From a phage, in the sequence record PX441839.1: 64,000 bases of DNA; one strand, given 5' to 3'. Below, piece by piece: positions 20,329-20,450 of the stretch. The notes under the pieces are model-generated. The model did not search any database and was not told the origin of the DNA. It saw nothing but the letters and a program-made list of their open reading frames with translations. Numbering within the stretch: the stretch's first letter is position 1; the number at the start of each line of letters is the position of its first letter. The position numbers and the translations under genes were made by a program.

Positions 20329-20345
20329 ACCAAAGAGAGAATTTA

Positions 20346-20427
20346 GCGCGGGTGTATCTCATCCGTCTTCTAAACGGACGTTAACCGAGTAATTGGAGTA
20401 TGGGGGTTCGAATCCCTCCACCCGCGC
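20346..20427 (+). ncRNA. non-canonical tRNA-like element
   Basis: T-arm GGGGG-TTCGAAT-CCCTC and anticodon-like hairpin TCCGT-CTTCTAA-ACGGA present, but no D-arm fits and the acceptor-like stem extends to a 14-bp perfect inverted repeat (ATTTAGCGCGGGTG / CACCCGCGCTAAAT, about 20341-20432). Confidence 0.3.
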
Positions 20428-20450
20428 TAAATTCTTTTGAGGTGTAAAAA

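Follow-up and report, generated by a model that had tools for sequence, protein, structure and literature searches.

The 64,000-nucleotide (nt) stretch of phage DNA analyzed here (sequence record PX441839.1; hereafter, the window) belongs to a Vequintavirinae-type myovirus and contains, between a tRNA-Met gene (20254 to 20328) and an open reading frame (ORF) for an HNH endonuclease (20451 to 20966), a noncanonical tRNA-like segment. A T-arm and an anticodon-like hairpin with UCU in the anticodon position can be recognized in it, as can its placement between the two genes, all as described in a first-pass annotation made from the sequence alone, but no D-arm hairpin can be placed. This element, located on the plus strand, raises the question of whether it is a damaged tRNA, an RNA that imitates a tRNA for another purpose, or a tRNA built on a different plan. 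Comparison with other phages makes it close to certain that the element belongs to a conserved, phage-restricted family with a rewired D-arm, and comparative sequence evidence suggests that it is probably a functional gene of a phage-specific tRNA-Arg(UCU) family in which this arm is topologically rearranged.

Fold, distribution, and covariation of the element

The inverted repeat that closes the element had been put at 14 perfect base pairs (bp) by the first-pass annotation. The repeat is real but longer: an inverted-repeat search yields 17 nt of 100% complementarity (20338 to 20354 and 20419 to 20435), and the minimum free energy (MFE) fold extends the closing helix to 20 bp (20335 to 20354 and 20419 to 20438), counting two G·U pairs and one further A-U pair. 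Across the 64-kb window, no second inverted repeat reaches 14 nt within a span of 150 nt. The 92-nt segment at 20341 to 20432 folds at −37.5 kcal/mol compared with −22.8 ± 2.8 kcal/mol for dinucleotide shuffles (z = −5.2), and none of 200 shuffles is as stable. The acceptor and anticodon stems are separated by only 7 nt (TATCTCA), so that no D hairpin can form between them.

ARAGORN reports 10 canonical tRNAs in the window (20173 to 20328 and 21458 to 22361), and the element is not among them. The Rfam tRNA model RF00005 matches 20348 to 20426 at 38.4 bits (gathering score, 29), with its 15 D-arm positions cut to 4 nt and 20 nt inserted in the variable region; at E ≤ 10, the other Rfam families, including Y RNA, give only subthreshold noise. 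Neither ARAGORN nor the Rfam model returns a canonical cloverleaf, in agreement with the hand fold of the first-pass annotation. The 7-bp acceptor stem, the 5-bp anticodon stem with a 7-nt loop and U33, and the 5-bp T-stem with a TΨC-type loop of the cloverleaf are all present, but the D-arm hairpin of positions 10 to 25 is absent, and so is the paired hairpin arm between the anticodon arm and the T-arm that defines class II tRNAs.

Near-full-length blastn matches to the element were found in 243 of 50,697 phage records. The carriers span phages of Gammaproteobacteria and Actinobacteria and include phi92-like phages (Justusliebigvirus), Felixounavirus with FelixO1, Vequintavirinae (rV5-like), Mydovirus (KB57), Asteriusvirus (121Q), Kuravirus, Sugarland-like phages, and Vibrio, Stenotrophomonas, and Streptomyces phages. 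The family comprises at least 140 distinct sequences (49 in a first set and 140 later), and scans with fixed-spacing patterns gave matches in 42 to 69 uncultivated viral contigs and at least 120 metagenome contigs. Bacterial genomes essentially lack the family: a blastn search of 5,426 complete Escherichia coli genomes gave no match, and in a set of 185,579 bacterial and archaeal species genomes, matches were confined to 3 contigs, all from metagenome-assembled genomes (MAGs). On these counts, a host origin of the element and the existence of prophage copies were rejected.

In GenBank, members of the family are unannotated or are labeled “tRNA-OTHER,” “tRNA-Leu(taa)” (121Q), or “tRNA-TERM” (7t3), the last two labels resulting from GTTAA in a looped-out segment being taken as the anticodon. 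No description of the family was found in the literature searched, exact sequence strings included, with subscription-only papers outside reach. As far as these searches show, the family has so far been undescribed and the element is a new structural variant of tRNA.

The family alignment comprises 82 columns and is gapless both for the first 49 and for the 140 distinct sequences. Its parts are arranged in the order of a 7-bp acceptor stem; U8-A9-U10; C11-N12-N13 (and N14); the anticodon arm, with a 5-bp stem and its loop; CGUUAAN; N40-N41-G42 (preceded by N39); UAAYUGGAGUAU; the T-arm; the acceptor 3′ strand; and G or A at position 73. In the proposed structure, 94.6% of the cells are paired, compared with 33 to 47% when the partners are slid by 1 to 3 columns, and changes on both sides occur in 19 of 21 pairs. 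This covariation supports four helices, one of them new, in which columns 11 to 13 would pair with columns 40 to 42. The C11-G42 pair is invariant. Pair 12-41 is represented by UA in 86 sequences, AU in 26, GC in 24, and CG in 2, with 2 unpaired (n = 140; mutual information [MI], 1.32), and pair 13-40 by CG in 115, UA in 11, and GC in 11, with 3 exceptions (n = 140; MI, 0.76), so that 5 of the 280 cells of these two pairs are unpaired. An unbiased MI scan of all column pairs ranks both among the acceptor, anticodon-stem, and T-stem pairs. The adjacent pair 14-39 shows covariation of a non-Watson-Crick kind (A·C, 82; C·A, 19; A-U, 14; C-G, 11; U·G, 5). The absence of a D hairpin, stated in the first-pass annotation, is thus confirmed, but the D-stem itself appears to be rebuilt by this long-range pairing.

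The window copy carries the CTC/GAG version of the new helix, enclosing the anticodon arm, together with the UCU anticodon and a UAAYUGGAGUAU-type strand before the T-arm. A covariance model of the family (R1) scores 20348 to 20429 at 104.4 bits, the window sequence having been part of the training alignment; members outside the training set score 62.7 to 97.9 bits, and canonical tRNAs score 36 bits or less. The U8-A9-U10 connector was fixed by the search pattern in the set of 140 sequences but is also present in members found without that pattern, in Streptomyces phage Francob, a Vibrio phage, and Stenotrophomonas phage SOVA965. The SOVA965 copy (positions 1323 to 1400 of locus L085; 62.7 bits with R1) has a 4-nt loop-out, AGCA, in place of CGUUAAN, and its D-loop-like strand ends differently (GGAUCAAU). 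It encodes GCCA and begins 4 nt past the stop codon of a homolog of the window HNH gene (42% identity). Because this copy diverges, the family is wider than the search patterns capture.

Three other foldings were considered and rejected. By inspection, taking the anticodon-like hairpin as a canonical D-arm leaves a sequence that cannot make an anticodon arm. The variable-region hairpin CCGA-GTAA-TTGG (columns 38 to 41 and 46 to 49), which appears both in the MFE fold and in the hand fold, shows no double changes, and 25% of its cells are unpaired. A helix proposed by RNAalifold (columns 33 to 36 and 43 to 46), which would form a pseudoknot with the D-like helix, is mismatched at 33-46 (G33·Y46) in 21% of the sequences and leaves C35 uncompensated in relaxed-pattern scans.

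The first-pass annotation had also offered a degenerate tRNA as an explanation. A pseudogene produced by endonuclease damage or recombination, with an inverted repeat arising by chance, would explain why ARAGORN rejects the element, why its Rfam score is the lowest in the cluster, and why GenBank leaves it without annotation or with the three labels given above. It would not explain why at least 140 distinct sequences, from phages of both Gammaproteobacteria and Actinobacteria, share the 82-column architecture and keep all helices through compensatory changes, including the double changes noted above and covarying extension stems. Furthermore, Salmonella phage SSBI34, which alone in the phage collection is closely related to the window (91.6% identity over 3.6 kb), matches it with 100% identity in the element and its flanks, although the neighboring spacers differ. 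Judged from these comparisons, decay appears effectively refuted and is given next to no probability.

The rearrangement can be described by reference to a normal tRNA, in which the anticodon stem carries the D-stem stacked upon it and strand 22 to 25 continues into position 26 and positions 27 to 31. In the phage family, U10-C11-N12-N13-N14 would stand for positions 22 to 26 (the 3′ strand of the D-stem) and lead straight into the anticodon stem, and CGUUAAN would loop out after the anticodon arm. The partner strand, N40-N41-G42-U43, would be supplied only at this point, followed into the T-arm by a D-loop-like strand with putative equivalents of U13·U22, A14, R15, Y16, Y17, G18, G19, A20, and, further on, A21 and U48. 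Thus, the 5′ strand of the D-stem and the D-loop would be transposed to the variable region, and a three-way junction would replace the four-way junction. The stack of the anticodon and D helices would contain 10 layers, namely, 5 + 1 (14·39) + 3 + 1 (the invariant U10·U43), compared with 5 + 1 (26·44) + 4 in a normal tRNA. Because the elbow nucleotides (U8, GG, and a canonical T-loop) are present and the layer counts are equal, an L-shape is inferred. The Francob copy is 1 nt shorter exactly at the 16/17 position of the D-loop-like strand, which fits the mapping because D-loops normally vary in length there. The counts for columns 45 and 54, the proposed Levitt pair 15-48 (AU, 134; GU, 3; GC, 2; UG, 1), provide a weak but consistent fit to the same mapping.

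Known tRNAs share individual features with the family. Like class II tRNAs (Leu, Ser, and Tyr) and allo-tRNAs (PMC5389517), it has a long insert separating the anticodon arm from the T-arm, but this insert forms no hairpin arm, and class II tRNAs keep a normal D-arm. The lack of a D hairpin is shared with the mitochondrial D-armless tRNA-Ser(AGY/AGN), such as Ascaris mt-tRNA-Ser(UCU) (PMC7609411), with which, in nematodes, the UCU anticodon is shared as well. However, the mitochondrial molecules are shortened, have lost the contacts between the D-loop and T-loop at the elbow, and need adapted mitochondrial factors, whereas the phage family is found in phage genomes rather than an organelle, is longer than a normal tRNA, retains the canonical T-loop in full along with a D-loop-like strand that contains GG, and, if functional, would use unmodified bacterial arginyl-tRNA synthetase (ArgRS), EF-Tu, and ribosomes. 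In the Steinberg-Cedergren model of mitochondrial D-armless tRNAs, the anticodon helix is reportedly prolonged by pairing of the connector with the region that follows the anticodon arm, and the phage family shares a prolonged helix of this type. There is no evolutionary relationship between the two groups.

Outside animal mitochondria, the cloverleaf is considered to be universal. In a 2024 paper, all known bacterial tRNAs are described as canonical, and E. coli is reported to have had to be evolved before it would accept a noncanonical one (PMC11551756). Tentatively, the family might represent a natural, widespread, non-cloverleaf elongator tRNA that works on ordinary bacterial ribosomes, a plausible reason for the rewiring being that it hides the tRNA from a host or competitor factor. 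Such a factor would read the face formed by the D-arm and variable region of normal tRNAs, as a tRNA nuclease, a modification enzyme, or a quality-control pathway might, while ArgRS, EF-Tu, and the ribosome would still accept the molecule. The rewiring has been kept across very different phage lineages, and the family is present in hundreds of cultured phages, including FelixO1 and phi92. If the proposal is correct, bacterial ArgRS, EF-Tu, RNase P, and the ribosome tolerate another chain topology, a natural scaffold would be available for tRNA engineering and orthogonal translation, and the question would arise of what selects for rewiring in phages, evasion of tRNA-directed immunity being the obvious candidate.

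Table 1. Parts of the tRNA-like element and the gene that follows it, in window coordinates
Feature	Coordinates	Strand	Basis or remarks
Whole element: rewired tRNA-like core and closing 20-bp helix	20335..20438	+	MFE fold, shuffle z score, model R1
Proposed processing stalk: 13-bp acceptor-helix extension, 5′ strand (GAGAGAATTTAGC)	20335..20347	+	Pairs with 20426-20438
Acceptor stem, 5′ strand (GCGGGTG)	20348..20354	+	Pairs with 20419-20425; 7 of 7 pairs covary, 98.8% of cells paired
U8-A9-U10 connector	20355..20357	+	Columns 8 to 10 invariant in the family alignment
Rewired D-like helix, 5′ strand (C11 T12 C13), and A14	20358..20361	+	Columns 11 to 13 pair with columns 42 to 40
Anticodon arm: stem TCCGT/ACGGA, loop CTTCTAA, anticodon TCT at 20369-20371	20362..20378	+	5 of 5 stem pairs covary
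Looped-out segment CGTTAAC and C39, from the anticodon stem to the D-like 3′ strand	20379..20386	+	CGUUAA nearly invariant
Rewired D-like helix, 3′ strand (GAG)	20387..20389	+	Pairs with 20358-20360; covariation
D-loop-like segment (TAATTGGAGTAT)	20390..20401	+	Nearly invariant in the family
T-arm (GGGGG/TTCGAAT/CCCTC)	20402..20418	+	Stem covaries, 99.2% of cells paired; canonical T-loop TTCRANY
Acceptor stem, 3′ strand (CACCCGC)	20419..20425	+	Covariation with the 5′ strand
Discriminator G73 (20426), CTA in the place of CCA (20427-20429), and remaining 3′ strand of the extension	20426..20438	+	
Ribosome-binding site (RBS) GAGGTG (20439-20444) and HNH_3 homing endonuclease gene (TTG start at 20451, 171 amino acids [aa])	20439..20966	+	

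Probable arginine identity and codon demand

When the family was searched for without specifying the anticodon, UCU was the only anticodon among true members, in the loops CUUCUAA, CUUCUAC, and UUUCUAA. Apart from the rewiring, the family is similar to canonical tRNA-Arg(UCU), as represented by E. coli argU, T4 tRNA-Arg, and an example that lies beside the element in locus L030. Shared features are the 7-bp acceptor stem, the 5-bp anticodon stem, the identical loop CUUCUAA, a canonical T-arm, G or A at position 73, a D-loop-type AAYUGGA with a putative equivalent of the ArgRS determinant A20, a usually encoded CCA, and location in phage tRNA clusters. Conversely, the family differs in the lack of a D hairpin, the placement of the D-partner strand and D-loop-like sequence after the anticodon arm with a three-way junction, the 7-nt CGUUAAN loop-out, a core of 78 nt, and its being missed by ARAGORN.

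The bacterial arginine identity set consists of A20, C35, U/G36, and A/G73 (PMC9976931). The window element has C35, U36, and G73, as well as an A after GG at 20397, the equivalence of which to A20 depends on the inferred three-dimensional fold. Across the family, 133 of 139 members have G or A as the discriminator. The host ArgRS would be expected to charge the element by means of A20, C35, U36, and G73, and the product would read AGA and probably AGG.

The tRNA complements of the carriers are consistent with this assignment. The complete genome of SSBI34 encodes 10 canonical tRNAs, none of which is a tRNA-Arg, and FelixO1 encodes 25, including Arg(ACG) but not Arg(UCU), in addition to the element. 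The phage of the window likewise appears to have no tRNA-Arg apart from the element. Canonical tRNA-Arg(UCU) accompanies the element in 7 of 140 loci. From this gene content, the element appears to fill the Arg(UCU) slot in phage tRNA sets, and because its gene is missed or mislabeled in most annotations, censuses of phage tRNAs and analyses of codon supply undercount tRNA-Arg(UCU).

Demand for such a tRNA is substantial in the window, where, in ORFs of at least 200 aa, AGA and AGG occur 10.9 and 7.2 times per 1,000 codons and make up 41% of arginine codons; AGA and AGG are rare in enterobacteria, with roughly 2 AGA and 1 AGG per 1,000 codons in E. coli. The two codons are concentrated in the tape-measure, baseplate, and tail-fiber genes (42249 to 59613) and nearly absent from early genes. 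The arginine codons are thus split by gene class, late tail and baseplate genes using mostly AGA/AGG (for example, 18 AGR versus 2 CGN in 46032 to 47000) and the early and metabolic genes (1183 to 18916) and the major capsid gene using almost none.

Charging by another synthetase would make AGA stand for a different amino acid; SerRS, for example, might recognize the long “variable” region. The extra region between the anticodon and T-arms and a G73 as in tRNA-Ser would suit this explanation, and in some animals a D-armless mitochondrial tRNA-Ser(UCU) does read AGA as Ser (PMC7609411, PMC4615739). However, the extra region forms no hairpin arm of the kind recognized by SerRS, and the putative A20 equivalent, C35, and U36 match the bacterial arginine set. 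In the large terminase, AGA and AGG occupy columns that are 93 to 100% Arg in 76 homologs and elsewhere mostly exchange with Lys; these codons therefore still appear to mean Arg, which argues against recoding. Reassignment of AGA is very improbable, and tRNA-Arg(UCU) is the identity considered below.

The closing stem and its proposed role in maturation

Beyond the acceptor stem, the lengths of the helix are bimodal, with an extension of 0 to 3 bp in 116 distinct sequences and of 13 to 18 bp in 23 (n = 139). The window copy belongs to the extended subclass, which makes up 17% of the family. In extended members, the closing helix reaches 20 to 25 bp in total, its extension covarying between phages in the middle and semiconserved at the base (RAGAG … CUCUU). 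None of these 23 sequences encodes CCA; the corresponding triplets are CUA (15), CAA (5), CAU (2), and CUC (1), with C74 always kept. Among the nonextended members, N73-CCA is encoded in 93 of 116.

The closing helix may serve as a processing stalk that releases the tRNA from a cotranscript of Thr-Met-element-HNH-orf132. Cleavage of the stalk would most likely be of the RNase III type, as for rRNA stalks, and would be followed by the action of RNase P, 3′ trimming, and CCA addition, the latter possibly by a CCA-adding enzyme of the phage lineage. RNase III is known to cleave stalks on rRNA precursors and the transcript of the T4 tRNA cluster. As in rRNA stalks, the flanks of a stable RNA pair over about two turns (20 to 25 bp), and it is the pairing rather than the sequence that is conserved. 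Unlike rRNA stalks, the putatively cleaved stalk of the element is continuous with the acceptor stem and takes in the discriminator and positions 74 to 76. SSBI34 encodes a protein with a PolyA_pol head and an HD domain, the architecture of CCA-adding enzymes (locus L235, 9986 to 11305). A second nucleotidyltransferase and an RNA ligase 2 beside a phosphatase are encoded in the same genome (loci L235 and L237, 7925 to 9833), together a set of the tRNA maintenance and repair type. If confirmed, the CCA-less, stalk-enclosed subclass would point to a possible new route of tRNA maturation. An alternative reading of the stalk as an intrinsic terminator was rejected: its T-run is itself paired within the stalk, and a terminator scan reports none there.

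Several points weigh against the identification of the element as a functional tRNA-Arg. By nearest-neighbor energies, the fold with the 3-bp long-range helix comes to −23.0 kcal/mol, compared with −27.6 kcal/mol for the MFE fold, so that covariation alone, not folding energy, argues for this helix. ArgRS, EF-Tu, RNase P, and the ribosome may have to tolerate a 7-nt loop-out within the anticodon/D stack. The A20 equivalent and GG were fixed by the search patterns in most sequences, and their invariance was seen independently only in the copies from Francob, the Vibrio phage, and SOVA965, which were recovered by BLAST or the covariance model. The window copy itself encodes G-CUA, while all 10 canonical tRNAs of the window encode CCA, and its 5′ end, discriminator, and positions 74 to 76 are buried in the 20-bp helix. 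The proposed role of RNase III in cleaving the stalk is a guess by analogy, drawn only from the two-turn length of the stem, and a nonaminoacylated, end-protected role would fit the stem-closed subclass equally well. Finally, of the seven elements that coexist with a canonical tRNA-Arg(UCU), five lack CCA and three are stem closed; the former count slightly supports a nonaminoacylated role and may be read as weakly suggesting that a copy lacking CCA is more than a redundant version of the normal tRNA-Arg.

The element might alternatively mimic tRNA-Arg(UCU) outside translation, a possibility already raised in the first-pass annotation as a decoy for an anticodon nuclease. It would then serve as decoy, sensor bait, or inhibitor against a host enzyme that targets tRNAs (for example, an anticodon nuclease, a toxin of the colicin D type, or a modification enzyme), with the closed 20-bp stem shielding it from exonucleases and preventing its charging. 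The sealed ends and missing CCA, which set the window copy apart from its 10 neighbors, are as expected for such an RNA, as are the strictly kept anticodon loop CUUCUAA, which bait would need, and the mild overrepresentation of CCA-less copies (five of seven) beside normal tRNA-Arg(UCU). The RNA ligase 2, phosphatase, and CCA-adding-enzyme homolog of SSBI34 are typical of conflicts involving tRNA damage, and phage tRNAs that counter tRNA nucleases have been documented (PMC10264068, PMC11464382). However, two-thirds of the members have a normal N73-CCA and no closing stem and are otherwise nearly identical, and the element replaces canonical tRNA-Arg(UCU) in 133 of 140 loci. The G or A discriminator (133 of 139) and the A20 equivalent, the latter mostly fixed by the search pattern, suit ArgRS and not a nuclease that acts on the anticodon loop, and no defense nuclease specific for tRNA-Arg(UCU) was found in the literature searched. 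Mimicry outside translation is the main rival to a working tRNA-Arg(UCU) but is judged unlikely. Both a decoy and a regulatory RNA are possible, especially for the CCA-less, stem-closed subclass, but they are less parsimonious than a tRNA-Arg(UCU).

A long terminal stem could also tether a Ro/Rsr-like protein, as in Y RNA-like (YrlA-type) tRNA mimics. YrlA reportedly has a long stem formed by its 5′ and 3′ ends and no free CCA, and in Streptomyces phage Francob the element copy (locus L234, 2495 to 2575) lies 1.3 kb downstream of a gene annotated as encoding a “Ro-like RNA binding protein” (1 to 1147). The likeness is limited to the subclass of the window, since most family members have CCA and lack the terminal stem. 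The topology differs as well: in the phage element the terminal stem extends the acceptor stem, but in YrlA it is said to replace the anticodon stem. With no Rfam Y RNA match at E ≤ 10 and no Ro-like gene annotated in SSBI34, a YrlA-type function seems remote.

The adjacent HNH gene and the tRNA cluster

The ORF downstream of the element matches the Pfam family PF13392 (HNH_3) with an E value of 4.1e-10 and 39.6 bits (cutoff, 24.8), and its start codon lies 12 nt past the end of the stalk, the RBS following the stalk directly. Homologs of this gene were sought by tblastn and a local phmmer search. Those with 48 to 56% identity are found 3′ of the element, placed and oriented alike, in Felixounavirus-like contigs, in 350-kb Salmonella jumbo phages (7t3), in a Culicoidibacterales MAG contig, and in other metagenomic contigs. 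Thus, in 14 of the 16 loci that hold this HNH family, from unrelated phages, the homolog directly follows the element, on the same strand and beginning 45 to 155 nt past the 5′ end of the element. More distant homologs follow other tRNA genes or none. In Erwinia phage Hallingskeid, for example, a homolog of the window gene (39% identity) is preceded directly by a tRNA-Gly(tcc) (locus L086, 702 to 787) that has a normal D-arm and an unusually long variable region of 15 nt. In 124 of 140 element loci, no HNH gene of the window type is nearby, and in many of these the element is followed by another tRNA or by no coding sequence. The presence of the HNH gene was compared with that of the extended stem, and no link was found, HNH genes occurring with both subclasses and most stem-closed copies lacking one.

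The first-pass annotation had suggested that the element might be the target or insertion site of the endonuclease. This idea has support, the element being a candidate target. In a comparison of locus L032 with LPML1, the HNH gene is a clean insertion of about 500 bp that starts 29 nt past the element core, and the homology of the window to UPEC06, which lacks the HNH gene, stops at 20440; the gene is thus present or absent, with sharp boundaries, at a conserved target. It is intact in the window (171 aa) but split in SSBI34 (locus L001, 4450 to 4964) into ORFs of 119 and 86 aa, which suggests a frameshifted, decaying homing endonuclease. Taken together, the pattern is that of a separate, selfish, free-standing homing endonuclease, a lineage of which appears to have settled repeatedly directly 3′ of the element gene. 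Free-standing homing endonucleases are found in other phage tRNA clusters, including SegB of T4 and F-TflI/II/IV of T5. As in those systems, a small HNH gene lies between tRNA genes, is present or absent in close relatives, has sharp boundaries, and belongs to a lineage that goes with one particular conserved tRNA gene; unlike in them, that gene is here the noncanonical tRNA. The protein may be a homing endonuclease that tracks such a gene. Clustering of neighboring ORFs at the element loci yielded several families of HNH-type endonucleases only and no dedicated protein partner.

The proximity of the two genes could alternatively mean that the element acts in cis, as a structured signal, for processing or regulation, with which the HNH mRNA or another downstream mRNA would begin, and/or as the DNA site of the homing endonuclease, its tRNA-like shape merely recruiting RNase P or RNase III. 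The distance of 12 nt from stalk to start codon, with the RBS immediately after the stalk, would fit such a role, as would the RBS and start codon found about 10 to 20 nt from the stalk in many stem-closed members, the fixed position and strand of the HNH lineage in 14 loci, and the clean insertion just 3′ of the element in L032. However, a cleavage signal needs no invariant UCU, 7-nt loop, canonical T-loop, or CCA; a DNA recognition site would not produce compensatory changes at the RNA level in four helices; and the 124 loci without a window-type HNH gene would have to be explained separately. A cis-acting role is therefore considered improbable, and the element is best treated as a probable tRNA gene beside which a homing endonuclease gene appears to have been inserted.

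The surroundings of the element provide several further observations. In FelixO1, the tRNA cluster (locus L070, 5078 to 7774) contains three annotated HNH endonuclease genes, one of which, ORF45, has no Pfam match in its annotated frame and, as annotated, overlaps the element, itself unannotated, at its 3′ end. The same cluster is headed by a DUF2828/DUF7788 “RNA-binding protein” gene, and no such gene is annotated in SSBI34. In the window, a terminator-like hairpin (21396 to 21413) is followed at once by a promoter-like site (21425 to 21453), both identified by consensus matches only, so that the tRNA cluster may be split at these sites into a Thr-Met-element-HNH-orf132 unit and a Tyr…Gly unit. 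One slot of the cluster holds tRNA-Gln(ttg) in the window (22205 to 22279) and tRNA-Met(cat) in SSBI34 (locus L001, 6207 to 6281); since the two are unrelated in sequence, single tRNA genes appear to be swapped between close relatives. Finally, tRNA-Tyr(gta) (21458 to 21544) mirrors the case of the element, being called by ARAGORN but falling below the gathering score of the Rfam tRNA model in a scan of the whole window.

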